Positions 1,447 through 55,424 of a stretch of DNA of 64,000 nucleotides are shown here, one piece after another. The stretch's first letter is position 1. Each line of letters opens with the position of its first letter. The stretch comes from an uncultured Clostridia bacterium. GTDB taxonomy: Bacteria > Bacillota > Clostridia > Oscillospirales > Acutalibacteraceae. The stretch covers positions 5,061 through 69,060 of the forward strand of contig CALBNX010000014.1 in assembly GCA_937896885.1 (NCBI GenBank), given 5' to 3'. The position numbers and the translations under genes are program-made. A model generated the notes under the pieces. The model was not told the origin of the DNA. It saw only the letters and a program-made list of their open reading frames with translations, and did not search any database.

Positions 1447-1518
1447 ATTTAAAATGCCAATGGGCTGTCCTTCTGTGTCCGATGAATCTAATAACTAAAA
1501 CTTAATATTACACACCAA

Positions 1519-1555
1519 AGCCGATGAGGCACCCACCTCATCGGCTGATTTTTTG
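1519..1555 (+). terminator. Rho-independent terminator
   Basis: Stem AGCCGATGAGG / CCTCATCGGCT with a 6 nt loop, followed by a T-run (GATTTTTT). Confidence 0.75.
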
Positions 1556-1574
1556 TCGAAAAAAGCAAAATTAT

Positions 1575-1601
1575 TGTCACAAAACATTGAATATTTACGA
1601 T
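1575..1601 (+). promoter_or_regulatory. ECF-sigma-type promoter motif, copy 1 (TGTCAC-N17-CGAT)
   Basis: TGTCAC at 1575-1580, exactly 17 nt, then CGAT at 1598-1601 followed by TTATAT. The same motif and spacing recur at 7 other sites. Confidence 0.55.
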
Positions 1602-1607
1602 TTATAT

Positions 1608-1787
1608 TATTGAGGATGAACGATATAATCGTAAGATAGAACATTAATATGTGATAAACTGTTTTTTATTTTGATAAGATAATAAATACAAAAATAACAG
1701 TATACTTCCCATCTCAACCCATCTATCTGTATCATCCCACACCTCACCCCCCAGCCGATGGTTCACCCCATCGGCTTAACTTTTTTT
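1608..1787 (+). ncRNA. Candidate small RNA, copy 1 (CU-rich, terminator-ended)
   Basis: Lies between promoter motif copy 1 and the terminator AGCCGATGG..CCATCGGCT (1753-1776) plus T-run 1781-1787. No ORF of 60 aa or more. Contains the pyrimidine tract CTTCCCATCTCAACCCATCTATCTGTATCATCCCACACCTCACCCC. A paralogous copy lies at 23587-23758. Confidence 0.45.
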
Positions 1788-1917
1788 GTCGAAATTCTGA
1801 ATAATTATGTATTTTATATTGACTATTGTTTACCATTTTATAAAACTAAAACATGCATTATTACTCTACTCGAAGACAAATGAAATTACAATATTCAAAT
1901 TGAAAGAAGGACTTTTT

Positions 1918-2532
1918 ATGGAATTAAAACACTACACCAATATGTTCGTTATAACTTTTGTGTTGTTTTTTATTATTTCACTAATAATTGATTTGAAAAA
2001 AACATATACACATGAAAACATATCGTCAAAATTGATGACGCGAGAGAATGGAGAACAATATATTCTTGTGATGACATTTTCTTGGCAATTCAATAAACAA
2101 AAAAGGATTAGAGAATTGTTTAAGCAAAATAGCGTTTATACGAAGAATGATTTCAATTATGTTATAACTAGTTGCCTTAAAGACCAAAAGACAAGTTTGT
2201 TTACTCGTGATTTCGAATTTGGAGTTAAACCTATTGGGCAATCAAAATCCACAGATATAAAATATTTTATATATATTACAGGTAGGGATAATCTTACTGT
2301 TAATTTGAAAAACGCAATCAACTATAATGAGGTATATTCAGAAATATACAGAAGCAACATTGATAACAACGATAAAGAGTTATTACTTAAATATTTTAAC
2401 AGTCTTTCAAACGATGTTGCTTTCGACAAAGAAAATACCAACGCATTCCTTGAACTTCTTAGAAAATATGAGCCAGTATTTTCCTTTGCAGGCAGTATAA
2501 TTAGTATTATATCAGCTCTCCTTTCAATATAA
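1918..2532 (+). CDS. Hypothetical membrane-anchored protein
   Basis: An internal ATG at 1918 with RBS AAGAAGGA is preferred over the 1807 start. N-terminal TM helix FVITFVLFFIISLIIDL and a C-terminal hydrophobic tail. Confidence 0.5.
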   Translation: MELKHYTNMFVITFVLFFIISLIIDLKKTYTHENISSKLMTRENGEQYILVMTFSWQFNKQKRIRELFKQNSVYTKNDFNYVITSCLKDQKTSLFTRDFEFGVKPIGQSKSTDIKYFIYITGRDNLTVNLKNAINYNEVYSEIYRSNIDNNDKELLLKYFNSLSNDVAFDKENTNAFLELLRKYEPVFSFAGSIISIISALLSI

Positions 2533-8435: not shown

Positions 8436-8505
8436 GAAAGCTAACAAAAATCCTCATAATTTGATAAAATAGGTCGTATCTTATCAAAATATGAGGTGTT
8501 TTTAT

Positions 8506-9414
8506 ATGGAGAACTTGAATTTATATGCAGAAGAGTGCATTTCTGTTATGAAATCTACAAAAAACATATCGGATTATAGTAGTTTGGCATACAGTTCTGA
8601 TTTGAATGATTTTATTGAATTTTGTGGTGGTGAGATTGACAACAATATTTTAGTCAAATATGTATCTTATCTATCACAGGACAGACATCTGTGTGATACT
8701 ACGATTAGCCGTAAATTGATAACGTTAAAAATGTTTTTTGAGTATCTATACAGTAAAAATCTCATAGAACAAAACTATTATCAGAACTGTCATTTCAAAT
8801 TTCGTAAGGAGCGAAAATTACCTAAAACTCTATCTAAAACAGAAACAGCCGAGCTTCTTAAAACTGCAACAGCAGAAAGAAACTCGGCTAAAAGTAATCC
8901 TGAAGTATTGCGAACGTCAAGGAATTTGGCACTTATCGATGTGCTTATAAGTACCGGCATAAGAATTGGTGAAGCATCAGCGATTTCATTGGATGATATT
9001 ATTGAATCTGAAAAGACTTTGCTTATTCATGGAAAAGGTCGTAAACAACGATTGATATACATTTCTTGTGATGAGACATGGAACAACCTTAACAAATGGT
9101 TGAATATCAGAAAGGAAATGGATATCCCTACTGATAAACTTTTTGTCAATCGTAGTGGTAATCAACTTGGCATTCATGGTATCGAATACATATACAAGCG
9201 AATTAAAGAAAACGCTGGCATCAATCCATCTTCTACCCCTCACTATTTGCGACACACCTTCGCAACAAACCTATTATCAAACGGTGCAGATTTGCGTTCA
9301 GTACAAGAGTTGTTGGGTCATAGCAGTGTTGCAATTACAGAAATCTATACCGAAATCACAACACAGAGAAAAAAGGAAGTATTAGATAAATATAACTTTA
9401 GGAATAGCTTATAG
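8506..9414 (+). CDS. Tyrosine site-specific recombinase, XerC/XerD-like
   Basis: N-terminal SAM-like core-binding domain. Catalytic signature: STGIRIGE (R), HGKGRKQR (K), HYLRHTFATNLL (HxxR), LLGHSSVAITEIYTE (H...Y). RBS GAGGTG before the ATG at 8506. Confidence 0.85.
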   Translation: MENLNLYAEECISVMKSTKNISDYSSLAYSSDLNDFIEFCGGEIDNNILVKYVSYLSQDRHLCDTTISRKLITLKMFFEYLYSKNLIEQNYYQNCHFKFRKERKLPKTLSKTETAELLKTATAERNSAKSNPEVLRTSRNLALIDVLISTGIRIGEASAISLDDIIESEKTLLIHGKGRKQRLIYISCDETWNNLNKWLNIRKEMDIPTDKLFVNRSGNQLGIHGIEYIYKRIKENAGINPSSTPHYLRHTFATNLLSNGADLRSVQELLGHSSVAITEIYTEITTQRKKEVLDKYNFRNSL

Positions 9415-11451: not shown

Positions 11452-11478
11452 TGTCACAAAATGATACATATTTTCGAT
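11452..11478 (+). promoter_or_regulatory. ECF-sigma-type promoter motif, copy 3
   Basis: TGTCAC 11452-11457, 17 nt, CGAT 11475-11478, then TAATAT. Upstream of the giant gene. Confidence 0.55.
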
Positions 11479-11646
11479 TAATATAGTATACCAAAATTAG
11501 ATGGAGAGGTGTTTTATTTGTTGGTAAATAAATATTTTGTTTCAAAAAAATAGAAATGGCATGGTGTCTGTTTTGTCATGAAATTACGGTAGATTTTAAT
11601 TTTGCCATACCCGTTGATTGTACAAAAATTAATATCTACTAGTGAT

Positions 11647-14600
11647 ATGAAAAGAGGGATTATTGTGAAAAAGGTCAGGATTTTTTTCAAATCAGCAATT
11701 TCAATTGTTTTAGCACTTGTAATTCTACTGGCATTAGAAAGCCCTATAATGTCAGCAATTGCTTCAGGCATTGAAAGTTTAGCACAACCTGAAGTTTCGA
11801 TTTCTGCCGAAGAAATTACACAAGCTTTGAACAACGCTGAAATTGTTGATATGAGCAAAGACAGTCAGTTTGTTTTGGCTGATGATTCAGTAGAAATTTC
11901 AGATGATTATTTTCCTAAAACTGCTGATATTAATTGTGTTGAATACCCACAGATAACAAACAATTATGAAGTATCTCCCATATCAGAAGGATTGGAAGGA
12001 GATGTTATGGTTTGTTTAACACAAAAATGGTTAAATCAAGAATATGGTGATGTAGAAGGTTTTATCAAAGTTACGGAAAATGGTGAAACAGGGTGGAATA
12101 CCATTTATGCCCTTATACGAGCCTTACAATATGAGCTTGGAATAACAAGCTTAACTAATAATTTTGGACCTACAACAAGTAAACTATATTCACAAAATAT
12201 TTTACGAAGACAAGATGGTGTAACAGATAACAAATATGCTATTTTGCAAGGTGCGTTGTGGTGCAAAGGATATTGTCCGGGATATAACATATCCATGGAT
12301 AGTGATGGAGTTGTAACATTTAACGCTGTTTTTGATGAAGGTGTTGAGAACGCAATTAAACAGTTACAAGCAGATGCGGGTTTACTTGAACAAGATGGTG
12401 TTGTATCATTAAATATTATGAAGGCTCTTATGTCAATGGATAGCTTCAAATTGTTACCAGCATCATACGGCAGTGATAATAAAATTCGTAATTTTCAACA
12501 GTGGCTCAATCGTAATTATGAAGAATATACAGGATTGAATCCATGCGACGGTGTATATGGTCGAAACACAAATAAAGCTCTTGTTTATGCTTTGCAAGCA
12601 GAAGAAGGATTGCCTGTCGGTGTTGCTACTGGTAATTTCGGAAATACAACAAAACTTTGTTGTCCTACAATTCCATATGATAGAAACAATGAAAATGCTG
12701 CACGAAAATATTCTGGTGAGACAGATAGTGATTTGTACACATACAAAGAGATTCAAGATTTTACCAAGCTTATGCAGTTTGCTCTATATGTTAACGGCTT
12801 TGGCGATGGTGATTTCGATGGCGTATATGACAATGCCACTAAACAAGCTATCAGGGGATTCCAAGAACACCATGCAATTGTTGTTAACGGAACGGCTAAT
12901 ACTGGTACGTGGCTATCTTTATTTATTAGCTGTGGAGATAAATATCGTGATGCAATAGCTGCAGACTGTGCAACAATTTTAACTGAAGCAAAAGCCCAAG
13001 CTTTAGTTGAAAATGGATATGAATATATAGGTAGATATTTAACCGGTACATATGGTGGTGGCATTAATAAAGCACTTTCACGTGAAGAAGCCGAAATAAT
13101 TCTTGAAGCTGGTTTGAAAATTTTCCCTATATATCAAGATGGCGGAACAACACAAAGTGATTTCACTGCAGAAAATGGAATACTTGACGGTAAAGCTGCC
13201 GTCAATGCCGCTAAAGCACTTGGATTGCCTGATGGCACAATTATTTATTTTGCTGTTGATTTTGATGCTATGGATTACCAAATCAAATCAAATATTATTC
13301 CATATTTTAAGGAAGTATATGCTGAGGTGACAAGTGCAAGTGCATACCAGGTAGGCGTTTATGGTGCAAGAAATGTTTGCTCACGTGTTTCTAATGCAGG
13401 ATATGCTTGCAGTAGTTTTGTAGGAAATATGTCAACAGGCTTTAGCGGTAACCTTGGTTTTAAAATGCCGTCCAATTGGGCCTTTGACCAGTTTGGTAAT
13501 ATGGATAAAAATGGAAATTATCTGATAATTTCTAGTGCTGATGGTAATTTTGAAATTGATAAAGACGGTGCTTCTGGTAGAGATGATGGTGTATCTTGGT
13601 TAAAAGATGTTGAACCTACAGATTATTGGGACACGGATGGTATTGATTCTGGTAATACAGACAGTGACACTCTTTATGGACCTACAGTTAACATTTTTGG
13701 TAATGCTGTGCCCCTATTCCAATTTGATATATCTTTTGAAACAAAGATTGCTCAAATAGAAACATGGTATGACCACGAAGAAAAAGCTACAAAAGTATTA
13801 ATTGGGTTACGATTAGCAGGTGTGGAAACTGAAATTGGTGGAACACGCGAAAAAATCAATAAATGCAATGAAGCTTATGAACAGGTAAAAAAAACCTTAT
13901 ATAAAATAGGTCAACCAAATACAACATACACATCTATAAAAGATAATTTCAAGGGAAGCCTATATGATAAAGGAGTCAAAGTCGGGTTCGATTTTAACGG
14001 ATATTTTTTGGGATACGCAAAAATAAATAATGATGGCAAGGTAGTCGAGGGAATGCTAGGATTAATGGCAACCGCAAAAGCCAGCATCTCATATCCTATT
14101 GTTCCAACACTTTATCTCAAGTTCCAAATTGAAGGCAGTTTGCAAGGTAAACTTCAACTTATCATAAATGATTCTGGGGCTTTGGGTACTCATGGAGAGT
14201 TTGTCTTTTCAATTAAACCAAGTGTAGGAATTGAGGGTAATCTTTATGTTGCACGAGCGTATGTTGGGTTAAGTGGTGAATTAGAATGTTTAACCCGCAT
14301 ACCATTTAGAACTCTACAAGAATCATTTGAAGCAGAGTATACAGGTAGTTTTTTCTTTGAATGGAATGCATTGTTCTGGAATGGTCGGTATGATTGGGAT
14401 TTTTTAAACGTGAAACTATATCCACAATCAGAAGAGTCCGTTTCAGTTGATGTGTATGACAATTTAAGTTTCATTGAACCACTATCCCAAGCAAGTGTGC
14501 TATCCAATACGACTAACCCAGACGTATTCAAATCTAGCGTTCAAGTTTACGCAGCCCCTAAAATAGTTGACTTTGGCAATGGTCAGTTGTTTATGACATA

Positions 14601-16905
14601 CATTGATGATGCACAAAATCGTTCTGCTGAAAATCGTACTACTTTGATGTATAGTATTTATAACGGAACCATTTGGAGTACACCTCAACCTGTTTTGGAT
14701 GATGGAACTGCCGACTTCGAAGCACAAATACAGCCCGATGGTACAGGTGGTGTTCACATCCTTTGGCAAAATGCCAATACTACATTTAGTGAAGGCGTAA
14801 CATTGGAACAAATGTCACAGGAAATGGAATTATACTATTCTCATTGGAATGGTACAACAATGGAAAATACTACAGCTATTACATCTTCTAATCAGAATTT
14901 AGAAATGACATATTCTGTGGCATCTTCCGACAACAACATTTCTGTTATATGGCAAGAAAACTCTAACAATGATTCTCTTGTTATGAGTGGAACAAACTCA
15001 ATTCACAGACGACAATTAATTGATGGTTTCTGGCAAGATATTGAAAATATTGCATCAAATTTGTCAACAATAAATAGTATTGAAACAGGATATATAAACA
15101 ATTCAAATATAGTTGTTTATTCTGCTAAATCTAATCTTGATGAGGATTTAGAAATATTCTACTATGATGGCACCGAAACAGTTGAATTTACAGATGACGA
15201 TGTACACGATTATTCTGTAAATATCTTGAACGATGAAATATATTGGATTAGTGAAAACTCAATTAACTGCGTAACAAACGGAGATATATCTACAAAACAA
15301 ACTATTCAGATATTTGACGGTACAGTTACTGAAATAAATGTTATCGGAAATGATAATGGAAATAAATCAATTGTATGGACATTAGCTGATGAAACAAAAG
15401 TTGACTTCTATGCAACTGACTTTAATAGTGAAACAAATTCTTATGGAATCATTCGACCAATCACAACCGTTAGTGGTGTTATTAGAGGTTGGGATGCATG
15501 CTTAACATCTGATGGAAATATTGAGTTATCATATTGTAATGCCGAAATATTGGAAGAACCAACTGAGGGTAATTATTACGGAACATTAAGTTTGATTCAA
15601 AAAGCAGAAGAAGATTTCTGTGATATTTCCATAATATCCGAGTTGGGTTGTAGTGGTTATATTGCTCCTAACGAAGAACTTACATTGACGGCTGATATAT
15701 ATAATCGTGGTTCACTACCTGTAAATCAATTCCTTGTTAACGTTATTGATGAAAATGGAAGCATTGTTCAATCTAATAGTATAGAAAAGGAAGTTGGTGT
15801 AAATGAGTATTCAAATATAGAATTTTCATTTACATTACCTGAAACTATTACAAGAACTGATTACAAGGTGAAAACCTTACCACAGCAGTATGACGATATT
15901 AACGAAGGAGATAACTACACTACCCTATCTGTTGGCTTCCCTGATTTAGTTATAAGCTCAATGGAAGAGGTCAGAAGTGATTTAGGTCGAGAACTTCATG
16001 TTACAATTAAAAATCAAGGATATGATGTTGTAAATGCATCTAATTTGAGTTTGTATTTAGATTCGTACAATGGAACAAATCTTGAGACTAAAGAACTTGC
16101 ATCCATTCAACCTGGAGAGGAAGTTGTTTGTACTTTCAATTTAACTGAATCTAATTCTGTACCAGCAGTTAGTGAAGAACCTAATTATGTATATCTGTCA
16201 CTAGAAACGACAGAAACAGAAAATGATTATTCAAACAACTATTCAGAGTATATTGTCTATCCCGATTATTCAATAACTTTAAATACAGGGACTTCTGGAG
16301 GAACAGTTTCAGGAACAGGCATTTACATAAAAGATAGTCTTGTTGAAATAAACGCAACACCTGAACAAGGATACATTTTCAGTGGTTGGTACGAGAACAA
16401 TGTTAAGATTCTTGGTGCTGATTCATCATATTCATTCAATGCAACACAAGATAGAATCTTAACTGCTAAATTTGTCCAATTAGATTTCTGTAGTATTTAT
16501 GCGTTAACATCTCAAACCGGAGAAGTTGATGAGACAAACAAATATCTACGAGGTATTAAAGCTGGTGGAAAAGTTAACGATTACTTTGCGGTAAGTGACA
16601 ATGGTTCATTATTACAGATTGAAAACAATTATGGCAATATAAATGCCACAGGCACAATTGTACAGACTCTTTCTTCAAGCAGAACTGTAATTGATGAATA
16701 TATTATTGTAATTTTGGGCGATGTAAATGGTGATGGAGCTATTGATGGATTTGATGTAATCACAATAGACCTATACATAGCCAATCTTCACGAACTTACT
16801 GGTGCTTATTTAGAAGCTGCCGACATAAATCAAGACGGATTAGTTGACGATTCGGATTATCAACTTTGTATTGATATAAGTACATTAAAAGTTGGTGGAT
16901 ATTAG
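11647..16905 (+). CDS. Giant secreted cell-wall-binding protein: 4x PG_binding_1-like repeats, DUF1906/Rv2525c-like glycoside-hydrolase-like domain, long beta-rich region, CARDB-like repeats, Listeria-Bacteroides repeat, C-terminal dockerin
   Basis: Start at ATG 11647, or GTG 11665 (RBS AGAGGGA). Signal peptide KKVRIFFKSAISIVLALVILLALESP. PG-binding repeats such as YALIRALQYELGI and ATKQAIRGFQEHHAI. DUF1906-like segment YIGRYLTG...IFPIYQ...IYFAVDFDA...VGVYGARNVC. Flg_new-like segment GGTVSGTGIY...GYIFSGWYENN. Dockerin GDVNGDGAIDGFDV...ADINQDGLVDDSDY. Confidence 0.75.
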   Translation: MKRGIIVKKVRIFFKSAISIVLALVILLALESPIMSAIASGIESLAQPEVSISAEEITQALNNAEIVDMSKDSQFVLADDSVEISDDYFPKTADINCVEYPQITNNYEVSPISEGLEGDVMVCLTQKWLNQEYGDVEGFIKVTENGETGWNTIYALIRALQYELGITSLTNNFGPTTSKLYSQNILRRQDGVTDNKYAILQGALWCKGYCPGYNISMDSDGVVTFNAVFDEGVENAIKQLQADAGLLEQDGVVSLNIMKALMSMDSFKLLPASYGSDNKIRNFQQWLNRNYEEYTGLNPCDGVYGRNTNKALVYALQAEEGLPVGVATGNFGNTTKLCCPTIPYDRNNENAARKYSGETDSDLYTYKEIQDFTKLMQFALYVNGFGDGDFDGVYDNATKQAIRGFQEHHAIVVNGTANTGTWLSLFISCGDKYRDAIAADCATILTEAKAQALVENGYEYIGRYLTGTYGGGINKALSREEAEIILEAGLKIFPIYQDGGTTQSDFTAENGILDGKAAVNAAKALGLPDGTIIYFAVDFDAMDYQIKSNIIPYFKEVYAEVTSASAYQVGVYGARNVCSRVSNAGYACSSFVGNMSTGFSGNLGFKMPSNWAFDQFGNMDKNGNYLIISSADGNFEIDKDGASGRDDGVSWLKDVEPTDYWDTDGIDSGNTDSDTLYGPTVNIFGNAVPLFQFDISFETKIAQIETWYDHEEKATKVLIGLRLAGVETEIGGTREKINKCNEAYEQVKKTLYKIGQPNTTYTSIKDNFKGSLYDKGVKVGFDFNGYFLGYAKINNDGKVVEGMLGLMATAKASISYPIVPTLYLKFQIEGSLQGKLQLIINDSGALGTHGEFVFSIKPSVGIEGNLYVARAYVGLSGELECLTRIPFRTLQESFEAEYTGSFFFEWNALFWNGRYDWDFLNVKLYPQSEESVSVDVYDNLSFIEPLSQASVLSNTTNPDVFKSSVQVYAAPKIVDFGNGQLFMTYIDDAQNRSAENRTTLMYSIYNGTIWSTPQPVLDDGTADFEAQIQPDGTGGVHILWQNANTTFSEGVTLEQMSQEMELYYSHWNGTTMENTTAITSSNQNLEMTYSVASSDNNISVIWQENSNNDSLVMSGTNSIHRRQLIDGFWQDIENIASNLSTINSIETGYINNSNIVVYSAKSNLDEDLEIFYYDGTETVEFTDDDVHDYSVNILNDEIYWISENSINCVTNGDISTKQTIQIFDGTVTEINVIGNDNGNKSIVWTLADETKVDFYATDFNSETNSYGIIRPITTVSGVIRGWDACLTSDGNIELSYCNAEILEEPTEGNYYGTLSLIQKAEEDFCDISIISELGCSGYIAPNEELTLTADIYNRGSLPVNQFLVNVIDENGSIVQSNSIEKEVGVNEYSNIEFSFTLPETITRTDYKVKTLPQQYDDINEGDNYTTLSVGFPDLVISSMEEVRSDLGRELHVTIKNQGYDVVNASNLSLYLDSYNGTNLETKELASIQPGEEVVCTFNLTESNSVPAVSEEPNYVYLSLETTETENDYSNNYSEYIVYPDYSITLNTGTSGGTVSGTGIYIKDSLVEINATPEQGYIFSGWYENNVKILGADSSYSFNATQDRILTAKFVQLDFCSIYALTSQTGEVDETNKYLRGIKAGGKVNDYFAVSDNGSLLQIENNYGNINATGTIVQTLSSSRTVIDEYIIVILGDVNGDGAIDGFDVITIDLYIANLHELTGAYLEAADINQDGLVDDSDYQLCIDISTLKVGGY

Positions 16906-18213: not shown

Positions 18214-20071
18214 TTTTCATCGCCTCCGCTATTGTTCTATGTTTTGTTATGTGGTTTACTGGCACTATACGCAATTGTGTCTTATCTTTTCCATTTTTAT
18301 GTTGTGTCATCTCGTGTTCATCTGTATTAGATTCATTTGTTTCATGATGCAACCATTCAGGATGAAATTTAGCAACAATAGTGCCCATCAATTCTTTTCG
18401 TGAAGCATATTCGACTTTCCTATTTGCATTATCTGATACGATATATGGTTTGCTCTCATCAAATTCTATTCCCCATTCAAAGAATAACTTGAGTTTTGTT
18501 TTCATTGGATTAACACCTGTTTTCATTACAATAAACTGTCCTTTAGGTAGTGATTTGAGTTCATCAGGAGTCATCAATGGTCTTTCAATCATCTGCAAAC
18601 TCTGTGATGGGTCATTCTTACCACGAGATACTGAACCAGACATTACCGTTCTGCTACCTAATGCTTTAGATAATTCTTCGGCAGAACTACTATTAGGTGC
18701 AAATCCACCGAACAAGGTTATCTGTGTATTATCTACAATAATATCAGCACCTTCTTTTCCATAGTTCTTTTCAAGTTGTCTAAAAGATTGAATAATAGGT
18801 ATAATCTGTAATCTACGGGAACGAGAAGCACTAAACATCATTTCTGCAGACTCAATCTTTGGTAGCGTACCAAACTCATCACAGAAAAATACACATCTGT
18901 TTTTGAGTTTACCACCTTGTTCATCGGCTACTGCAAGTATTTCACGATATAACTGTTGGATAATAAGAGATACCATAAAGAATGTGTTAGGATTTTCTTC
19001 AGGCATATTGATAAAGATTGCACACTTTTCTGAGCAGAACTTTTCGGCATCTATTTCGGTATCAAAACACAATAATTGCTCTAACTCTGAATCAAGAAAA
19101 GTATTCAGTCTTGATAATGCTGTACTCATAACACTCGCCATTGTATTTTCGGAAGTAGTGAGAGCCGCACCTGCGAACCACTTTGCTTTATGGTCATCAG
19201 GTAACATAGATATCAAGTTTTGAAATTGATTTTTACCTTTCTCTTGTGTTGGTTCAAGAAGTTCTTGTATGACTTTGAATACGGACACAATATGCCTTTT
19301 GCTTGGCTCACAAAATTCTGCTACAAGCAATATTGTTGCAGTAAGGATACCTTCTGCCGCATCGTAGAAATACGCATTTTGTCCGAATGAAGCGGCATCC
19401 ATACCTGATAAGATAATTGTTTTGGATATAATCTTGGCATATTTCTCTGCTTGTGCTTTGTAAGAGAGTTTATCCGGATTAGCGATATACAAGTCCATAT
19501 ACTTGTTAACGAGGTGCAAGAGGTTGTTTCCGTTTGAACGAGTGGGGTTTCTTAAATCAATTACTGCTACACTATAGCCATAGTCTTTTGCTATGTAGCC
19601 ATAGTTTCGCATAATATCTCCTTTGGTATCAGTTGACAGAAAAGACATACCCGAAGCCAAAGCATATTCTATACAAGGATATAACCAATAAGCAGTTTTA
19701 CCGACACCTGCCGCACCAATCATCAATACATGAACATCTCCTGTATCAACCAATGCAGTTGTGTTATGTTTTCCACCTTTGCAACCTACAACAATTCCTT
19801 GTGGTAATGGTTGTTCTTTCTTTTTTACTGATGCAGTTGGATTTTTGCCTTTTAATGCTTGTTTACGCCATTTTTTCGGAGTGAATAGAACATATTTGTA
19901 AGTCTTCAGTAACTCGGATTTAGTTGCCCATCGAGCAGTACCGTGTTGTCCGTCACCGACAGTTTTGCTCTTAATATTATTCAGGTTGTATATGTGAGTA
20001 ATAAGAGATATACCACCGAGAATACAGAACATTACCCCAAAGGCAATAATCAAAGTTGTAACGCTTGACAT
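18206..20071 (-). CDS. Type IV coupling protein (VirD4/TraG family)
   Basis: N-terminal TM helix, Walker A GAAGVGKT, Walker B-like VFFCDEFGTLP, ~620 aa. Confidence 0.85.
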   Translation of the reverse strand: MSSVTTLIIAFGVMFCILGGISLITHIYNLNNIKSKTVGDGQHGTARWATKSELLKTYKYVLFTPKKWRKQALKGKNPTASVKKKEQPLPQGIVVGCKGGKHNTTALVDTGDVHVLMIGAAGVGKTAYWLYPCIEYALASGMSFLSTDTKGDIMRNYGYIAKDYGYSVAVIDLRNPTRSNGNNLLHLVNKYMDLYIANPDKLSYKAQAEKYAKIISKTIILSGMDAASFGQNAYFYDAAEGILTATILLVAEFCEPSKRHIVSVFKVIQELLEPTQEKGKNQFQNLISMLPDDHKAKWFAGAALTTSENTMASVMSTALSRLNTFLDSELEQLLCFDTEIDAEKFCSEKCAIFINMPEENPNTFFMVSLIIQQLYREILAVADEQGGKLKNRCVFFCDEFGTLPKIESAEMMFSASRSRRLQIIPIIQSFRQLEKNYGKEGADIIVDNTQITLFGGFAPNSSSAEELSKALGSRTVMSGSVSRGKNDPSQSLQMIERPLMTPDELKSLPKGQFIVMKTGVNPMKTKLKLFFEWGIEFDESKPYIVSDNANRKVEYASRKELMGTIVAKFHPEWLHHETNESNTDEHEMTQHKNGKDKTQLRIVPVNHITKHRTIAEAMKNG

Positions 20072-20967
20072 TGTTTTTTTACCTCACTTTCTTTAGAAAA
20101 TACTAAATCCTCATTCCAATCTTTGTGCTTTGGAACGAGGATTTTTGATTTAATATTTAATTCATTTAGTTTGTTTTGAATTCGTTTGTTAGCTTCTAGT
20201 CCAGGATTATCATTATCAAAGCATAGATAAGTGAATTGGATATTAGGATTGTCTTTAAGACATTGAAAAAGCACCCTGTCCGATACAGAACAAGATGCCG
20301 CATAACTGTGTTTTTTCCAAGCTTTTTTATGCATTGAGATAAAGGATAGCAAATCAATTGGTGCTTCGAATAGAAATAGATATTTACTTTTTCCATGCCA
20401 ATGAAAACTGTATTCTGGAATACTGCCACTAGCATTTCCTTTGTATGTACTACCTTCACCAATCCCTCTCATATGAGCATGACGGGGTATACCGTTCTCA
20501 TCATAGCCGAGAAATACAACACTGTGATAATCTTTTGATTCATAGAGCATTTGCTCATGAAAAAATGAGTATATGATTTCTTTATCTATTCCTCGTTTAA
20601 CGATTAAGTAGTTAATCATTCGGCTCATATCATCGCTTTTAGGCGGAGGTATAAATTCTTTGCTTTTGTTTGTTTTCTTTACTTGCTGTGTATGGGTTAT
20701 CGCACAACAACTATTGCCAAGTAAGTATTCCATAGCACCTTGAAAAGACTTGTTATAGAACTTATGAACAAAATCAATCGTATCCCCGCCAACTCTTTCA
20801 TATTGATGGAACCATAAGTTATCTCTTATGGTTATTTTTTGTGAGTTGCAGAACCACTCATATTCTGAACCAGATTTCTTAATTTGCTCACCTTGGCTTT
20901 GCAGAAGACTAACAATATCCGTTTGTCTCGCTTGTCGTTTTTGTTCTTCTGTAAAATGAATATACAT
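20050..20967 (-). CDS. DUF3991/Toprim domain protein (primase-like conjugation protein)
   Basis: Start at MYIHFTEEQ with RBS GGAGGTGGA. Toprim acidic motifs LFLFEAPIDLLS and LCFDNDNPG. Confidence 0.7.
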   Translation of the reverse strand: MYIHFTEEQKRQARQTDIVSLLQSQGEQIKKSGSEYEWFCNSQKITIRDNLWFHQYERVGGDTIDFVHKFYNKSFQGAMEYLLGNSCCAITHTQQVKKTNKSKEFIPPPKSDDMSRMINYLIVKRGIDKEIIYSFFHEQMLYESKDYHSVVFLGYDENGIPRHAHMRGIGEGSTYKGNASGSIPEYSFHWHGKSKYLFLFEAPIDLLSFISMHKKAWKKHSYAASCSVSDRVLFQCLKDNPNIQFTYLCFDNDNPGLEANKRIQNKLNELNIKSKILVPKHKDWNEDLVFSKESEVKKQCQALQL

Positions 20968-21052
20968 TATTCCACCTCCATTAATTATAGTTTTATCTAA
21001 TATCAATAAATTTTTTACCGATATAAAAAATTTATTGAATAACATAAAAAAA

Positions 21053-21079
21053 TGTCACAAAAGCACTTATAGTTTCGAT
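21053..21079 (+). promoter_or_regulatory. ECF-sigma-type promoter motif, copy 4
   Basis: TGTCAC 21053-21058, 17 nt, CGAT 21076-21079, then ATATAAT. Upstream of the three-gene plus-strand insert. Confidence 0.55.
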
Positions 21080-21182
21080 ATATAATTATATAGTCGGTAT
21101 TCAAATAAGAATTATAAACGACTAATATTTTTTAATTGTAGAAAAAAGAATGAATAAAATTATTACAACATAGGTGATTTTT

Positions 21183-21662
21183 ATGATGAATAAGTATAGT
21201 TGGAAAAAGTCATTGTTTAAAAATATTTTTCTTTTATTTTTATTGGTTGGTATAATCATATTAATAGTAGTAATAAGTTATTTGTGGGGAGAACTTATAA
21301 AATCGAATGAATTATTTTGTAGTTTGGTGGGTACTTTTTTAGGTATATTTGTTGCATTAATGTTTGATAGATTAATTGAAAATTTCAAATCAATAAAAAC
21401 ATTAAAGAATTGGCTAATATTATTAGATAAAGAACTTACACCTATTTTACAAATACAGCCTAATTCGAGCATTCAGTTTAATTGTTTACAAAATCTAATT
21501 AATTCACCAGATTTCACATTATTCATGAAAAACGAGGAGCTTTTATTAAGTTTATATAATCTTAATAATAACTTGGAAAAATTCGAAAATGGTCAAAATG
21601 ATAGTAATATAATTAATGCAATAAAAAAAGACATAAAGGTAGTAATTAATTTCATAAAATAA
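21183..21662 (+). CDS. Hypothetical membrane protein (2 TM)
   Basis: RBS AGGTGA then ATG at 21183. TM helices IFLLFLLVGIIILIVVISYLW and LVGTFLGIFVALMF. Confidence 0.5.
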   Translation: MMNKYSWKKSLFKNIFLLFLLVGIIILIVVISYLWGELIKSNELFCSLVGTFLGIFVALMFDRLIENFKSIKTLKNWLILLDKELTPILQIQPNSSIQFNCLQNLINSPDFTLFMKNEELLLSLYNLNNNLEKFENGQNDSNIINAIKKDIKVVINFIK

Positions 21663-21676
21663 AGAGGTGCTTTAAT

Positions 21677-22222
21677 ATGTGCTTAGAACAGAAAAACAAA
21701 AAATTTGATTCGTGCTCACCAAATACTTCACAAGAAGAAAAAACTTATGAAGAAAAGTTAAAAAATAATTATTTACAGAAACTTTTTTTATATACATGGA
21801 ACTCAACTTACAGAACGGTTGAAGAATCATATCTCAAATACAATGGTCAAAAAGTATATATTAATTTTGATGATGAGAATACAGATAATTTTAGTTATGT
21901 TGGAACTTGTGAAATTGAAGATCATGCAATCTTCATTAATGTAAAATCAAAAGAAGATAATGACCAATGTTTAGTGATACTAATGAATGATAAAAATTTT
22001 GATCATGAGTATGACACAATATATTTTAATGTTGGAATGATGCTTTCATATGGTCGTAGAAGTCAATTCCCTGAAAGCAAAACGGTTTTTGCTTGCCAAA
22101 AAAAACTAAACATAAATAGCAACTCAATTTTTAACAGACTAATAAAAGACCAACTTAAAAAATATCAAATTGAACCTAATTTTTTAAAAGAAATTAGTAA
22201 GAAAATAGATAAGGTGGGTTGA
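21677..22222 (+). CDS. Hypothetical soluble protein
   Basis: RBS AAGAGGTG. No recognised motif. Ends in TGA, which shows TGA is a stop codon in this genome. Confidence 0.45.
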   Translation: MCLEQKNKKFDSCSPNTSQEEKTYEEKLKNNYLQKLFLYTWNSTYRTVEESYLKYNGQKVYINFDDENTDNFSYVGTCEIEDHAIFINVKSKEDNDQCLVILMNDKNFDHEYDTIYFNVGMMLSYGRRSQFPESKTVFACQKKLNINSNSIFNRLIKDQLKKYQIEPNFLKEISKKIDKVG

Positions 22223-22229
22223 TGGAAAT

Positions 22230-23276
22230 ATGAGTTCAATAAATATAACAAATGTTGAGGAACTGTTGGAATATAGTAACAACTGCTTTGAAAAAATTAT
22301 GAGAAAGCATATAGTAATTATACTAAATTCACAAAAGAATCTAGCACCATCACCGACTTTAGAATTTGAACATGCAAATTCAATTGAACTTTTTACGGAT
22401 ACTGAATATCAAGAAATTGTGGAAGCTTTTGATGAACTGAAAGTTAAATATTCAATTTATTATGAAGAATTAAGCTTTATGACGGATGTGTTGAATGGCA
22501 ATTTAATTCCTGCTGATATTGTGGTTTTTAATTTTGCAAGAAATGGAATAAAAGAAGGTAAAAAAAGTTTAATTCCGTCTTTTTGCGATTTGTTAAATAT
22601 AATTTACACAGGTTCTGGAGCTTTTGCTCAATCATTATGTAGAAATAAATTTGTATATAATAAATTATTACAACAAATTGGTCTCAAGATGCCAAAAACT
22701 TGTGGATACACTCCTCAAGGGAAATGGATGGGTGGACTAGAACCACATGATTTAGATAAAGTAATTATTAAACCTATTGCTGAAAGTGGAAGTATAGGAG
22801 TATCTAAAGAAATTGTGCACTATAATTCTTTAAATAAAAATGATATTAATTTTATACATAATCAAACTATGTTATTTCAAGAATATATTATCGGTAAAGA
22901 AGTGGAATGTCCATTTTTTGTAATAAATGGTAATGTGATTGCGTTACCAGCAATTGAATTAAAAATAAAGAATCAAAGTTTTTTAGATATAGAAACTTCT
23001 GCGAACAATGATTATACTTTTTCAATTTTCAATACTGAAAAAGCAGTTCAACTTTATCCTTTACTAGATAAGATAGTTTCAACTTTAAACATTAATGGGT
23101 ATGGTCGCGCTGATTTTAGAGTGACTAAAGATGGAGAAATGTTTTTATTTGATGTTGCTACAATGCCCTTTATATGTAAGCATTCTTCTTTTGCTTTTGC
23201 CATGGAATATTTAAATTTAAAAAGGTCTGACATATTTAAAATTATTTTATGTATTGCTCTACATAATAAAGTTTAG
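22230..23276 (+). CDS. ATP-grasp enzyme, D-Ala-D-Ala-ligase-like
   Basis: Ddl-like central and C-terminal signatures: IYTGSGAFAQSLCRNKFVYNKLLQQIGLKMP, VIIKPIAESGSIGV, GYGRADFRVTKDGEMFLFDVATMP. Confidence 0.65.
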   Translation: MSSINITNVEELLEYSNNCFEKIMRKHIVIILNSQKNLAPSPTLEFEHANSIELFTDTEYQEIVEAFDELKVKYSIYYEELSFMTDVLNGNLIPADIVVFNFARNGIKEGKKSLIPSFCDLLNIIYTGSGAFAQSLCRNKFVYNKLLQQIGLKMPKTCGYTPQGKWMGGLEPHDLDKVIIKPIAESGSIGVSKEIVHYNSLNKNDINFIHNQTMLFQEYIIGKEVECPFFVINGNVIALPAIELKIKNQSFLDIETSANNDYTFSIFNTEKAVQLYPLLDKIVSTLNINGYGRADFRVTKDGEMFLFDVATMPFICKHSSFAFAMEYLNLKRSDIFKIILCIALHNKV

Positions 23277-23553
23277 TTAGTCTATTGTTAAGAGTTCAAC
23301 ATTTTTATGTTTTTTACATTTCCAACAGGTATAATATAATTTACTATTTTAATTACTAAAAAATATTATTTGCCAAGATGTAAAGACATACTAAAGCCGA
23401 TAATAATTTTCATTGGTGTCGTTTTTAATCCACTTATATGCTAATTACTACTAAACACGAATGGGTGCTTTTTTTGTAATTCGACTCTTAATAACTAAAA
23501 CTCAATATGATATAATAATATATTATATAAACACTTTTTAAATTAGCTGTTTT

Positions 23554-23580
23554 TGTAACAAAATATTGATAGTATGCGAT
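23554..23580 (+). promoter_or_regulatory. ECF-sigma-type promoter motif, copy 5 (TGTAAC variant)
   Basis: TGTAAC 23554-23559, 17 nt, CGAT 23577-23580. Occupies the same position relative to sRNA copy 2 as motif 1 does to copy 1. Confidence 0.5.
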
Positions 23581-23586
23581 TTGTAA

Positions 23587-23758
23587 ACATTGAGGATGAG
23601 CGATATATTCGTAAGATAGAATGTCAATATTTGACAAACTGTTCTTCATTTTGATAAGAGAATAATTTAACAAAGAACAGTTCACTTCCCATCTCATCTA
23701 TCTGTATCATCCCACACCTCACCCCTAGCCGATGGTTCTCCCCATCGGCTTATTTTTT
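23587..23758 (+). ncRNA. Candidate small RNA, copy 2
   Basis: Shares long identical blocks with copy 1: ATTGAGGATGA, TCGTAAGATAGAA, ATTTTGATAAGA, ACTTCCCATCTCA, ATCTATCTGTATCATCCCACACCTCACCCC. Terminator AGCCGATGGTTC..CCCCATCGGCT (23727-23750) plus T-run. Confidence 0.45.
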
Positions 23759-23819
23759 ATGTAATAAGCACTTATTTAATGAAAAAATTATAATAGTTTA
23801 ATTACAAGATGAATTTTTG

Positions 23820-23846
23820 TGTCACAAAATGATGTAAAAAAACGAT
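23820..23846 (+). promoter_or_regulatory. ECF-sigma-type promoter motif, copy 6
   Basis: TGTCAC 23820-23825, 17 nt, CGAT 23843-23846, then TTATTATAT. Lies 32 nt upstream of ORF 23878. Confidence 0.55.
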
Positions 23847-23877
23847 TTATTATATAAAGAGTTTTTGAGGTGATATA

Positions 23878-24195
23878 ATGAATAAAAAAGAACTATATGA
23901 ACTAAAAAAAGATTTTGAATTTGATTGTTATTTACATGATGACATTTCATATCTCTTTATGAAATATGGCTTCTATGTCTGTATGATATTTTTTGCACTT
24001 AATGCTATTTTCGGTATATCGTCCATTGTTACCTATATTATTATTGGAGATGTTTTTGCTTTAATATTTTCAACTTTAATATCTGCACTTCTTTCTTTGC
24101 TTGGTGCTTTTGTACACATTGTAGGATTGGTAATTTTTAATATTAAATTCAGACAAAAATATCATTACTATAAATATGAAATTTTCTGGCCTTGA
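23878..24195 (+). CDS. Small membrane protein
   Basis: RBS GAGGTGA. Two long TM helices (FYVCMIFFALNAIFGISSIVTYIIIG; LISALLSLLGAFVHIVGLVIF). The 3' end overlaps the convergent relaxase gene. Confidence 0.5.
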   Translation: MNKKELYELKKDFEFDCYLHDDISYLFMKYGFYVCMIFFALNAIFGISSIVTYIIIGDVFALIFSTLISALLSLLGAFVHIVGLVIFNIKFRQKYHYYKYEIFWP

Positions 24196-45267: not shown

Positions 45268-48200
45268 ATGGCAAGCAAAGAAATGAAGATTCATATTGAT
45301 TTACTAAAACGCAGAGGCAACTTTTTTACCAATATAGGCTTATTAATTTCAATAAATAATGGAGATGACTATTATAATATAATAAAAAAGTATTTTACAG
45401 ATTCTAATCCAATTAATAGAAAATCTTTTTTTCACAATAATTATAATGATGTATTAGAATATACCCCTACTGGACAAACCGCTAACTTATTAAAAATGTT
45501 ATTATGGAGTAGTACTATTATATCTTTCTATAAAGAAGAAATTGTAAATTTTGTTTCCATAAAGAAAAAATTTGATTATTATGTTTTAACCGGAGATTAT
45601 GAAAACGCATTAAAAGAATTGGATTACATAGAAAACAATATAAGCTTTTCTATGTGGTCACTCAAAAATAGAATAATGCTTGCTAACTTAAGAGGCGACA
45701 GAGTTGATGAATATATTAATTCCTTGAATTTAAATAAATATGCAACATCACATGCTAACTTATATGCTCATTTTACAAAAGTTGAGTGTAATGTTAATGA
45801 ATATATTAAAAATATAGAACATATTACTAATACTTTGCCAAAAGATTATGTAAATTGTTTTTTATATCTATATGGTGATGTTGATGATATAGAAATTGAA
45901 AACTATTCTAATGTTTTAGCATATTGTAATGCTTATTCAATTATTGATAGCTATCTTTGCATTAAAAGAATTCTACATAGTTATTTATCAACAGAAGAGT
46001 TTGAAAACAAGCTAATACAAAAAAGCATAGATATCTTATCATGCATAGAGAACGATGATGAACTATTACTTTTTATATCACACAACATCCCTAAAGATAT
46101 GAATATGTCTTCTTCCTGTGAAAGATTATTTGCTGATTTTAGTCATAAGAATTATGAAAAAATCTTTATAAATCGAAATAACTATTTACTAGATATCTCA
46201 GCATGTAGTCTCATAAAAATTATTATTATCACGATATCTGGTATTCTTTCTAATAAAATTGATAATAATTTTTCAGAAAAAAGCATTTTGGATTCCATTA
46301 TTCTTTCTTTATACAGAGTTTTAAAGTCTGATAACCTATATGATTTTCGTATTGGATTGTCAAAAATGGAAAGTTATAATAGAGTATTACGTTGGTTTGA
46401 TATATCAAATCCCTTAGGTCTCTTTTGGAAGAATTGTTTAAGTTATATAGAGGAGAATCCGATAGAAAAATGCTTTTCTATCGATGATAAAATACTTTAT
46501 AATAAGATTGTAGATTTACAAGTTCCGCCAATCTTTTTCGAATCGCTTTATCATTATACAAAAATGGATTTTGATTATTCTGATATTAAAAAAGATTTTA
46601 CTGATAATGAGAATAATATCTTTATAATATCATTGCTTTACATACAATATTATGTCGCGCTAGGCAAAAAGGACTACTATTTTGCTACTGATATTTTCTC
46701 AAAGGCTATTGCTAATTTTACTCCATTAATATATAGATTTAGAGTTGATGAAGTTTGTAAACATGTTATAAATAATATTACTATAAAAGAATCAGTAACA
46801 ATAAGTGATGTTATTTTTTCCTTCAATGTGAATGATTTAAAACCATACAAACTTATAGCTTATAAGAATTTTTTGGATGAAAACAACATTGTAAAGCCTT
46901 TAGAGATTATTAATTTGCCTATAGATAAGCAGCTTAAAATATATTTTCTTAAAGAAATTTGCACGATTGACACAATGACATGTCTCTATGTTACATTTCC
47001 TAATAGTAATGAGATTGAAAACCATAGAATAGAAATCTGCAAATTCTTACTTGAGAATGATCCTTCAAATAAAGGCTCATATGGTAAAGAAATATCAGAA
47101 ATATTAAAAGAACAAGAAGTAAGAAAATTAAACAAAACTATTGATAAGTCTAAATTAAGTATAGATTACCAATATATTTTAGATAAAACATATGAACAAT
47201 TCTTAGATTTAACTAAAATGTATTATGATACTAGACCAGATGCAATAGAGTATGTTTCTTTTTCGTCACCAATGATTATCAGCACTGAACCACAAAGTTG
47301 GCGTTTTATTGCTTTGTCTCGCGATATTGTACTCGAAAATATGTATAAAGTATATGCCGCAGAGTTCTGTTTTGGAAGCAGGGGCCTTGATACATACCTT
47401 AGTACACGAGTACGACATGGAACTTTTGAAAACACAATAAAGAAAGTGTTTATAGAAAATAATCTATATAACACTGAAAACAATTTTTTTAAATCTATGT
47501 TTTCAAAAGAGCATGTTTCACAAAAAATTACGGAGGTTATAAAAGACTTTAGAGAACAATTACTTAATAGGATTCATGTTTTGACAAACACAACATTTAA
47601 AGTATTTATTGAAAATGAGATAAAAGGAGCTCTTTTCGATTATTATATGGATACAAAAGATGTAGCAATAATATACAAACAATTGAATTTAAAAGAATCA
47701 TTTTCAGTTCTTGATTTTATAAACATTATTTCGGATACAATAGTAATAAAAACAAACGAATATCTTGCGTTTATTAGAGACGCTGTTTTAGAAAATCTTA
47801 AAAGCGAGATTATTGACTTGTTAGATAATTTAAATGCCGATGTAGAAATCTACTGCTTGGAAGCTTCAGCACTTTCTAATATTAGAAATAACATATCTAG
47901 AAGCAAAACAAACATTCAAAACAAAATAGATGATATAAAAAATTGGTTTTACCTATCCGAATCAATTCCTATGGAAAACTATACAATTGACAAATTGATT
48001 GATGTGTTAAACAAGAATTTATGTCAGCAGTTTGATGATTTTAATTTAATTGATTTAAAAACTAACAACTCTATTTCAAAAGATTTTGTAGGTGAATCTT
48101 TCGTTTATCTTTACGATATACTGCACATTCTTTTGTCAAATGCAATTATTCATTCAAAATTTGAAAATTTAAATGAATTGAAAATTATTTTGGAGACAAC

Positions 48201-48486
48201 AGAAATTAGTGATGAATATGTTTCATTCTGTATAAAAAATAATTATTCTGAAGCATGTAGTCGTGAGCAAGTGGAAGAATCAATTAGAAAAATTAATAAT
48301 ATTTATGTAAATAGAGAATACACAAAAGTAGATACCCACAAAGAAGGCGGAATGGGCCAAATAAAAGTTTTAGATATTTTATATAATATTTTAAATGTCG
48401 GGAATACTTTTGAGGCAGTATGTGATTCTGATAATTATGAAATAAAGTTTACTATTTCAAAAAAAGGAGTAATTGCCTGTGATTAA
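45268..48486 (+). CDS. dtcA: Detocs DtcA-like sensor: large helical-repeat N-terminal region plus a histidine-kinase-type GHKL ATPase
   Basis: RBS AAGGAAGGA. 1072 aa with no TM helix or signal peptide. The N-terminal ~650 aa are Tyr/Leu/Asn-rich and helical-repeat-like. Candidate phospho-His in LSTRVRHGTFEN (His codon 47416-47418). N-box ILLSNAIIHS and G-box HKEGGMGQIKV at the C-terminus. Confidence 0.7.
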   Translation: MASKEMKIHIDLLKRRGNFFTNIGLLISINNGDDYYNIIKKYFTDSNPINRKSFFHNNYNDVLEYTPTGQTANLLKMLLWSSTIISFYKEEIVNFVSIKKKFDYYVLTGDYENALKELDYIENNISFSMWSLKNRIMLANLRGDRVDEYINSLNLNKYATSHANLYAHFTKVECNVNEYIKNIEHITNTLPKDYVNCFLYLYGDVDDIEIENYSNVLAYCNAYSIIDSYLCIKRILHSYLSTEEFENKLIQKSIDILSCIENDDELLLFISHNIPKDMNMSSSCERLFADFSHKNYEKIFINRNNYLLDISACSLIKIIIITISGILSNKIDNNFSEKSILDSIILSLYRVLKSDNLYDFRIGLSKMESYNRVLRWFDISNPLGLFWKNCLSYIEENPIEKCFSIDDKILYNKIVDLQVPPIFFESLYHYTKMDFDYSDIKKDFTDNENNIFIISLLYIQYYVALGKKDYYFATDIFSKAIANFTPLIYRFRVDEVCKHVINNITIKESVTISDVIFSFNVNDLKPYKLIAYKNFLDENNIVKPLEIINLPIDKQLKIYFLKEICTIDTMTCLYVTFPNSNEIENHRIEICKFLLENDPSNKGSYGKEISEILKEQEVRKLNKTIDKSKLSIDYQYILDKTYEQFLDLTKMYYDTRPDAIEYVSFSSPMIISTEPQSWRFIALSRDIVLENMYKVYAAEFCFGSRGLDTYLSTRVRHGTFENTIKKVFIENNLYNTENNFFKSMFSKEHVSQKITEVIKDFREQLLNRIHVLTNTTFKVFIENEIKGALFDYYMDTKDVAIIYKQLNLKESFSVLDFINIISDTIVIKTNEYLAFIRDAVLENLKSEIIDLLDNLNADVEIYCLEASALSNIRNNISRSKTNIQNKIDDIKNWFYLSESIPMENYTIDKLIDVLNKNLCQQFDDFNLIDLKTNNSISKDFVGESFVYLYDILHILLSNAIIHSKFENLNELKIILETTEISDEYVSFCIKNNYSEACSREQVEESIRKINNIYVNREYTKVDTHKEGGMGQIKVLDILYNILNVGNTFEAVCDSDNYEIKFTISKKGVIACD

Positions 48487-55398: not shown

Positions 55399-55424
55399 AT
55401 TTTTAAGGGACTTGTTCAGTCCCT

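Follow-up and report, generated by a model that had tools for sequence, protein, structure and literature searches.

FinP of F and Anti-Q of pCF10 are antisense RNAs of conjugative plasmids, and each overlaps its target. RsaE and RoxS are roughly 100 nucleotides (nt) in length. They are C-rich small regulatory RNAs (sRNAs) of Bacillales that pair in an anti-Shine-Dalgarno (anti-SD) style (PMC6158497, PMC5419742). The sigma-E-dependent envelope-stress sRNAs include MicA, RybB and MicL, together with FoxJ in Fusobacterium (PMC4102768, PMC11005410). In cellulolytic Clostridia, sigma-I promoters contain a specificity region and an A-tract followed, after 13-14 nt, by CGWA (PMC4711584, PMC10575876), and the -35 element of sigma-I6 is CNNAAA (PMC4711584). 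For sigma-I of C. thermocellum, co-expression with promoter-reporter fusions was carried out in Bacillus subtilis (PMC4711584). Here, we analyzed a 64,000-nt stretch of DNA from an uncultured Clostridia bacterium (GenBank assembly GCA_937896885.1, contig CALBNX010000014.1, positions 5,061 to 69,060), referred to as the window, which carries two copies of a unit that runs from a promoter motif to a terminator. Each copy is most likely a stand-alone gene for a folded noncoding small RNA of about 170-180 nt with predicted transcription, as judged from its sequence. The candidate most probably represents a new sRNA gene of narrow distribution that is governed by an alternative (sigma-I-like) promoter.

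The unit was compared with known RNA families by searching Rfam with the whole window at the gathering score and with both copies under permissive settings, and only tRNAs and chance matches were returned. An earlier note on this DNA had likened the layout of the RNA to that of the RsaE/RoxS type. Membership in that family did not hold, as there was no match to RF01820 at the gathering score and RsaE was not listed for either copy at E values up to 10.

The two-copy unit and its homologues

The segments at 1606-1787 and 23586-23758 were about 85% identical in a pairwise alignment. When 1440-1860 was aligned with 23440-23830, similarity extended from the promoters, at about 1575 and 23554, through the T-runs at 1787 and 23758. 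Each segment leads from a common alternative-sigma promoter motif to the same G+C-rich hairpin and T-run. The features of the two copies are as follows:

1575-1601, plus strand: putative alternative-sigma promoter of copy 1, with TGTCAC (specificity region), AAAA (A-tract), 13 nt and CGAT
1606-1787, plus strand: candidate RNA copy 1, about 177 nt long for a transcription start near 1609-1612; covariance-model match of 199 bits
1753-1787, plus strand: intrinsic terminator of copy 1, with a 9-bp stem AGCCGAUGG/CCAUCGGCU, a 6-nt loop and a T-run, from a terminator scan
23554-23580, plus strand: putative alternative-sigma promoter of copy 2, with TGTAAC, AAAA, 13 nt and CGAT
23586-23758, plus strand: candidate RNA copy 2, about 170 nt; covariance-model match of 221 bits
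23727-23758, plus strand: intrinsic terminator of copy 2, from the terminator scan and the fold

Both segments proposed by the earlier note were thus located as discrete promoter-to-terminator units. The identical blocks that it listed, ATTGAGGATGA, TCGTAAGATAGAA, ATTTTGATAAGA, ACTTCCCATCTCA and the 30-mer ATCTATCTGTATCATCCCACACCTCACCCC, were all present in the alignment of the two copies. The 30-mer had two exact matches compared to 0.00 expected, and TCGTAAGATAGAA had two compared to 0.08 expected. A covariance model built from the homologues found exactly these two copies in the 64 kb. The next-best match scored 17.7 bits and was caused by a similar terminator stem. The same terminator follows both copies, with hairpins and T-runs called at 1753-1776 and 23727-23750. 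Each has a 9-bp stem with six G-C pairs and then a T-run, on the plus strand only, which is the arrangement of an intrinsic terminator. The terminator hairpins folded at -15.8 kcal/mol for copy 1 (z -4.8) and -17.6 kcal/mol for copy 2.

Homologues were then examined in related genomes. Contigs were fetched via the neighboring proteins, giving L010/L011, L012, L013, L015/L016 and L018 with the context of an integrative and conjugative element (ICE) and L031 with the chromosomal context. An exact-pattern scan of 185,579 species genomes in GTDB gave one true match, L002, and the other eight matches were chance matches in coding DNA. In total, seven distinct versions were found (copy 1, L002, L031, copy 2, L010, L018 and L015), which are 82-96% identical to each other. 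The five versions from outside the window come from Candidatus Fimenecus-like assemblies and occupy the same two settings as the window copies, either after an RHS toxin/immunity pair or at the cargo edge of a MobL-type element. Conservation starts at the -35 element and stops at the T-run, so it is bounded by the promoter and the terminator. The core elements of the promoter are retained while its spacer drifts, and variation is also seen in the CCCC ahead of the terminator, in the terminator loop and on either flank. The RNA was absent from L029 and L030, which carry homologues (70-73% identity) of an 866-amino-acid (aa) neighbor of copy 1. The ICE relatives L019-L028, identified through a 100-103-aa gene (71-75% identity), had neither cargo nor RNA.

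Promoter motif and predicted fold

The motif TGTMACAAAA-N13-CGAT occurs seven times in the window with no mismatch, compared to 0.11 expected. The sites are at 1575, 5658, 11452, 21053, 23554 and 23820 on the plus strand and at 52338 on the minus strand, and all seven are co-directional with a downstream cargo, surface or membrane gene or with the RNA. The extended form at the seven sites is TGTMAC-AAAA-N13-CGAT-nnn-TA. The sigma-A promoter at the tRNA genes of this host is a canonical TTGACA-N17-TATAAT and, therefore, the motif represents a different promoter class.

The earlier note had called this an extracytoplasmic function (ECF) promoter. ECF promoters have a -35 element with AAC and a -10 element with CGT about 16-17 nt apart, as in TGTAAC-N17-CGAC for Bacillus subtilis sigma-X. 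Set out in this layout, the sites read TGT(C/A)AC-N17-CGAT, with AAC in copy 2 only, CAC in the others, and CGA instead of CGT in the -10 element. TGTAAC-N17-CGAT does resemble the sigma-X/W sites of B. subtilis. However, the A-tract, which is invariant at the motif sites, is not an ECF feature. It reads CACAAAA at six of the seven sites and AACAAAA at the seventh, which fits the extended -35 of sigma-I. The distance from AAAA to the -10 element is exactly 13 nt at every site, which fits the sigma-I spacing of 13-14 nt. In the -10 element itself the first three bases fit, but all seven sites have CGAT in place of CGWA, and since the fourth base is T rather than A, strict sigma-I membership fails on that feature. 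The promoter motif of the earlier note was thus upheld and its ECF label is questionable, as a sigma-I-like layout with an A-tract, 13-14 nt and a CGWA-like element appears to fit at least as well.

Other genes share the motif. It fronts the 100-105-aa gene in all of the related conjugative elements, and a promoter of this type drives the TIR-domain operon in L010. The site at 11452 precedes the gene of a 1767-aa protein (11602-16905) with peptidoglycan-binding, Rv2525c-like glycoside-hydrolase, CARDB, Listeria-Bacteroides repeat and dockerin domains. The motif is perhaps the more useful result. It marks co-regulated cargo genes across the family of MobL-type conjugative elements and provides a handle for finding the responsible sigma factor. 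Separately, in L030 an ECF sigma gene (Sigma70_r2 and r4_2) is accompanied by a DUF4367 gene at 579-1821, and the homologue of the 866-aa secreted protein follows about 2 kb downstream. This sigma factor was considered as a candidate and set aside, as its own promoter looks sigma-A-like (GTGACA-N16-TATAAA) and does not have TGTCAC/CGAT.

Both copies fold better than shuffled sequence, with a minimum free energy of -36.7 kcal/mol (z -3.39) for copy 1 and -44.7 kcal/mol (z -4.91) for copy 2. Essentially one fold was predicted for both copies and all of the homologues. Its elements in the window are as follows:

Copy 1, plus strand, predicted helices: P1 1614-1619/1732-1737; P2 1620-1632; P3 1634-1640/1722-1728; P5 1658-1663/1696-1701
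Copy 1, plus strand, exposed segments from unpaired probabilities: junction 1702-1721 (ACUUCCCAUCUCAACCC); linker 1740-1752 (CACACCUCACCCC)
Copy 2, plus strand, predicted helices: P1 23594-23599/23707-23712; P3 23614-23620/23697-23703; P4 23622-23636; P5 23637-23646/23673-23682
Copy 2, plus strand, exposed segments from unpaired probabilities: junction 23683-23696; linker 23715-23726

P1 is predicted to pair GGAUGA with UCAUCC and P3 to pair AGAUAGA with UCUAUCU. P2 is a predicted hairpin, ACGAU...AUCGU, P4 is a weak one, and P5 would join ACUGUU to AACAGU around a large AU-rich loop. A single-stranded linker and then the terminator follow P1 on its 3' side. The earlier note had described the 3' pyrimidine tract as unstructured. 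Instead, since UCUAUCU and UCAUCC pair with the purine-rich 5' end, about half of the tract is predicted to be paired, with AGAUAGA and GGAUGA as the partners in every homologue. As for exposed C-rich motifs, ACUUCCCA(U) in the junction and (C)CACCUCA (CACCUCACCCC) in the linker are each unpaired with a probability of about 0.9, but UCAUCCC and UCUAUCU are predicted to be paired in P1 and P3, and the CCCC varies among the versions.

The substitutions among the versions were compared with this fold. Variable columns made up 35 of 88 unpaired positions compared to 11 of 78 paired ones (Fisher p = 2.4e-4). This test has a degree of circularity, since these sequences also served to derive the structure. 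The changes within pairs comprised one G-C to A-U exchange in P4 and single changes compatible with G-U pairing in P1, P2 and P4. The covariation proposed as a check by the earlier note was not found, as the observed score was reached by 188 of 500 shuffles and there was only one compensatory pair.

Proposed mechanism and alternative explanations

The mechanism that we propose would begin with transcription from the alternative-sigma, sigma-I-like promoter, with its TGTCAC specificity region, A-tract, 13 nt and CGAT, and would end at a constitutive intrinsic terminator. The RNA would close on itself by pairing its 5' GGAUGA with UCAUCC and AGAUAGA with UCUAUCU, with two or three hairpins inside. 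Two conserved pyrimidine-rich segments would remain unpaired, with ACUUCCCA located in the junction and CACCUCA immediately ahead of the terminator. Acting in trans, these segments would base-pair with mRNAs at purine-rich ribosome-binding regions and reduce the translation of these mRNAs. The same promoter type would drive the neighboring surface, membrane and cargo genes, and the RNA would be the noncoding arm of the regulon of its sigma factor. One paralogue would serve on the chromosome, beside the RHS toxin/immunity cassette, and the other at the cargo edge of the MobL-type conjugative element. We infer transcription, the acting sigma factor, action in trans and the anti-SD mechanism from the features described above. 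For this explanation as a whole, a stand-alone folded sRNA under an alternative-sigma promoter whose C-rich segments pair in trans with ribosome-binding regions, we estimate a probability of about 0.5. That the unit is a real noncoding RNA gene is likely, and the anti-SD mechanism taken by itself is tentative.

Pairing with mRNAs was examined in silico. Against the translation-initiation regions of the window, the two C-rich segments gave mean energies of -7.9 and -8.0 kcal/mol, compared to -5.1 and -4.6 kcal/mol for random windows. The AU-rich P5 loop showed no preference for initiation regions over random windows. A 15-nt perfect complement of the P5 loop, TATCTTATCAAAATA, lies at 8477-8491 and abuts the SD sequence (TGAGGTG) of a tyrosine recombinase gene with a likely start at 8506. 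The junction formed a duplex of -18.4 kcal/mol with the initiation region of the ATP-grasp gene at 22230. The best initiation-region duplexes (genes 22230, 26626, 38080 and 5846) were considered as targets and rejected, as the pairing is not conserved across contexts. As a separate observation, the complement at 8477-8491 is inside an operator-looking inverted repeat, TTTGATAA..TTATCAAA (8460-8510).

Several results weigh against the proposed mechanism. The affinity of the C-rich segments for SD regions is generic, and any C-rich or anti-SD-like sequence would show the same. The target search in the window gave no conserved target. A match as long as the one at 8477-8491 was reached in 6.6% of shuffles, and the loop motif behind it is altered in L031. 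The other contexts lack the ATP-grasp gene at 22230. Since the affinity is generic and the specific leads are weak, anti-SD pairing can only be proposed tentatively. Part of the proposed seed varies: L018 and L015 have TTTC in place of the CCCC ahead of the terminator, and the linker of L031 carries an A-to-G change. The fold cannot be proven by covariation, with no compensatory change in P1, P3, P5 or the terminator, and P4 is poorly preserved in both copy 1 and L031. A Pfam search of 55 open reading frames (ORFs) and inspection of the leftover small ORFs by eye found neither a sigI/rsgI nor an ECF sigma gene in the window. The family is very narrow, as BLAST gave no match in plasmids or phages, and neither three exact patterns in IMG/VR nor two exact patterns in JGI metagenomes gave a match.

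Another possible explanation is that the RNA is structured in order to act through a protein or other ligand, as a sponge, a decoy or a cofactor for conflict systems, and not by seed pairing with mRNAs. The C-rich stretches would then be structural parts or protein sites. The closed multi-helix fold with long invariant stretches, including paired ones, is consistent with this idea, and so are the lack of a conserved mRNA target and the position of every unit beside a variable module of conflict or cargo genes (RHS toxin/immunity, a TIR_2 operon or ATP-grasp genes). However, no protein gene is common to all contexts and, thus, there is no obvious protein partner. In addition, no Rfam family or known protein-binding RNA motif matches, so we consider a protein or ligand role unlikely. 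It could also be that the unit is a nonfunctional or incidentally transcribed repeat, a promoter and terminator module that was duplicated together and persists at recombination boundaries, serving at most as a homology patch for cassette exchange between the chromosome and the conjugative element. In both settings the unit sits exactly at the border of variable and conserved DNA, and its terminator stem CCGATG..CATCGG is a recurring module with four occurrences. Between L031 (2700-3805) and the window (1447-2532), identity is 99.8% in the gene of a 204-aa protein and 97.2% from the terminator to its ATG, and it drops to 85% in the RNA body and 76% upstream, with the sharp change at the RNA terminator. 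The RNA allele of L031 also shares more identity with the ICE copy (87.5%) than with copy 1 (83.7%). This pattern suggests a recombination breakpoint and an exchange of alleles between chromosomal and ICE paralogues. On the other hand, conservation is much higher in the RNA body than in the DNA to its left and, in the ICE lineage, it also exceeds that of the DNA immediately after the terminator. The substitutions avoid the predicted helices (p = 2.4e-4), the promoter core is kept as its spacer drifts, and the predicted fold is considerably more stable than folds of shuffled sequence. Such patterns are not expected of neutral repeats that are 15% diverged, and a functionless repeat appears quite improbable.

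A cis-acting leader, such as a riboswitch or attenuator, would use its terminator to control read-through into the downstream gene. Both window copies do lie upstream of, and co-directional with, a small membrane-protein gene, and a closing helix followed by a terminator is riboswitch-like. However, the downstream genes are unrelated and encode proteins of 204 aa, 105 aa and, in L002, 864 aa. A separate promoter lies between the terminator and the start codon, TTGACT-N17-TATAAA for copy 1 and a second TGTCAC-type promoter for copy 2. No antiterminator was found, since the alternative pairing (-5.2 and -3.6 kcal/mol) is no better than in shuffles, compared to -15.8 and -17.6 kcal/mol for the terminators, and no Rfam riboswitch matched. 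The missing antiterminator and the varied downstream genes with promoters of their own make a stand-alone RNA more likely than a leader, which has a low probability. The unit might instead be a small-protein gene, encoded either by a 7-codon mini-ORF on the plus strand or by a minus-strand frame of about 35-69 codons (WEV...HPQ). The mini-ORF is present in all versions, as MNDIIVR and MSDIFVR in the window, and the minus-strand frame is the only one that stays open across the five tested sequences. However, in the mini-ORF GAGG abuts the AUG without spacing, L010 has a GTG start, and four of four substitutions are nonsynonymous. The minus-strand frame has 14 nonsynonymous and five synonymous codon columns, and its codon-position counts of 5/7/10 give no clear third-position bias. 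Its boundaries are not the same in all lineages, owing to a 5-nt indel and to a stop present only in copy 1 and L002. It has no preceding SD sequence, it was not called by gene callers in L010, L011 and L018, and an open frame of 35 codons is not unusual by chance among six frames. The earlier note's observations that no long ORF is conserved and that a 69-aa minus-strand ORF exists in copy 2 only were confirmed, and no reading frame examined, including those of the homologues, had a coding signature. A small-protein gene is accordingly very improbable. Finally, the two scattered copies, of which one is on a mobile element, could be the ends or remnants of a transposable element (a miniature inverted-repeat transposable element or the end of an insertion sequence), which the earlier note had named as a possible refutation. 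However, the copies share no terminal inverted repeats or target duplications; there are only AT-rich chance matches, which differ between the copies. Their boundaries coincide with the promoter and terminator, there is no adjacent transposase, and synteny runs across copy 1 in L002 and L031. A transposon origin is the least probable of the alternatives, and a stand-alone sRNA is our preferred explanation.

Genomic settings and comparison with known systems

The window has a G+C content of 33%, and its closest public relative is a Candidatus Fimenecus metagenome-assembled genome (Clostridia) that is about 90% identical over 3 kb. As the earlier note had described, copy 1 lies behind the C-terminal part of an RHS gene and an immunity-like gene, and an RHS_repeat domain was found in the full-length homologues (L002 and L031). 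Downstream of copy 1 are the genes of the 204-aa membrane protein and then of the 866-aa secreted protein. The segment between the immunity-like gene and copy 1 contains a further feature:

1489-1560, plus strand: terminator module of the preceding immunity-like gene, with the left edge TAATAACTAAAACT, a hairpin at 1519-1546 and the tail TTTTTTGTCG

The earlier note had included TAATAACTAAAACT in the unit as a common left edge. It belongs to the terminator module of the preceding gene, and the RNA unit begins at the promoter. The module recurs at 2556-2626, after the gene at 1918-2532, and at 1489-1560 it gave only a weak covariance-model match due to the shared stem. More generally, a recurring module, AACTAAAACTnAATATT ... 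AAAGCCGATG-loop-CATCGGCT-T-run-GTCG, stands behind two different genes, and its stem is common to both RNA terminators. The stem pattern CCGAT..ATCGGYT occurs in four hairpins (eight strand-wise matches compared to 0.14 expected), and TTTTTTGTCG occurs three times compared to 0.32 expected. The region looks like a set of cassettes bounded by one recurring terminator.

The element with copy 2 encodes a MobL relaxase, a coupling protein, a DUF3991-Toprim primase, TrbL and a VirB4-like ATPase. Copy 2 was confirmed to have on one side a cargo operon of three genes, one of them for an ATP-grasp protein, and on the other a 105-aa gene that is convergent with the MobL relaxase gene. In the MobL-type ICE family, this position (20050-24195 in the window), flanked by the primase gene and the 100-105-aa gene, is a hot spot for cargo. 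In cargo-less ICE relatives the hot spot is empty, with 100 nt from the primase to the 100-aa gene, and when it is filled the RNA is at its right edge. Three cargos adjoin the RNA in this way in conjugative elements: the ATP-grasp operon, the TIR operon and a RimK-like gene. The cargo adjoining copy 2 gave no match to defense-system models. Elsewhere on the conjugative element, three adjacent genes (45268-50117) match A, B and C of the candidate defense system PDC-M60. Receiver-like domains are present in the B and C proteins, and the C protein additionally contains an effector domain of the nucleoside-phosphorylase type. A further match, to PDC-S60, came from a 540-aa protein (52958-54580) on the same element. 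Two tRNA genes lie at 55327-55501 on the minus strand, with their sigma-A promoter at about 55530-55560. They are at the border of mobile or accessory DNA and housekeeping genes (pyrB and others) and, therefore, may mark an integration site of the element.

At present, the RNA is one more unvalidated sRNA candidate with a narrow distribution. Provided that it is transcribed and active, the RNA would bring post-transcriptional control to an alternative-sigma regulon of surface, dockerin and mobile-element cargo genes in uncultured gut Clostridia. In that case, a conjugative element would also be carrying a paralogue of a host regulatory RNA. A bolder possibility, which we regard as speculative and rather improbable, is that it is the first riboregulator under a surface-sensing sigma factor of the sigma-I type (SigI/RsgI-like), with the ICE paralogue linking cargo to the surface program of the host, or that the unit is a homology patch that moves toxin/immunity and defense cassettes between the chromosome and the ICE. 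No sigma-I-dependent sRNA was found in the literature searched.

Compared to the known systems, the RNA is like RsaE/RoxS (RF01820) in being a candidate stand-alone Bacillota sRNA with an intrinsic terminator and C-rich motifs that are predicted to be exposed and could pair with G-rich SD sequences. It differs in its length of about 175 nt, its closed multi-helix fold with half of the C-rich tract paired, its promoter type and its restriction to Fimenecus-like Clostridia. Like FinP and Anti-Q, it would be a small RNA gene on a conjugative element near transfer genes (relaxase and primase). Unlike these, it overlaps no gene, has a chromosomal paralogue and is absent from related elements that lack cargo. 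With the sigma-E-dependent sRNAs it would share its logic, as the sRNA gene has the same alternative-sigma promoter as genes of a surface or envelope regulon and is proposed here to be the noncoding arm of that regulon. The sigma-E sRNAs are Gram-negative, Hfq-associated and experimentally proven, whereas this candidate has a sigma-I-like promoter and no similarity to them in sequence or structure. As for the sigma-I promoters (PMC4711584, PMC10575876), the differences are the CGAT at seven of seven sites and the lack of a sigI-rsgI operon in the window. The likeness lies in the specificity region, the A-tract, the 13-14 nt, the -10 element that begins with CGA and the T(A) a few bases downstream, and one of the motif-bearing genes encodes a dockerin-containing surface protein.

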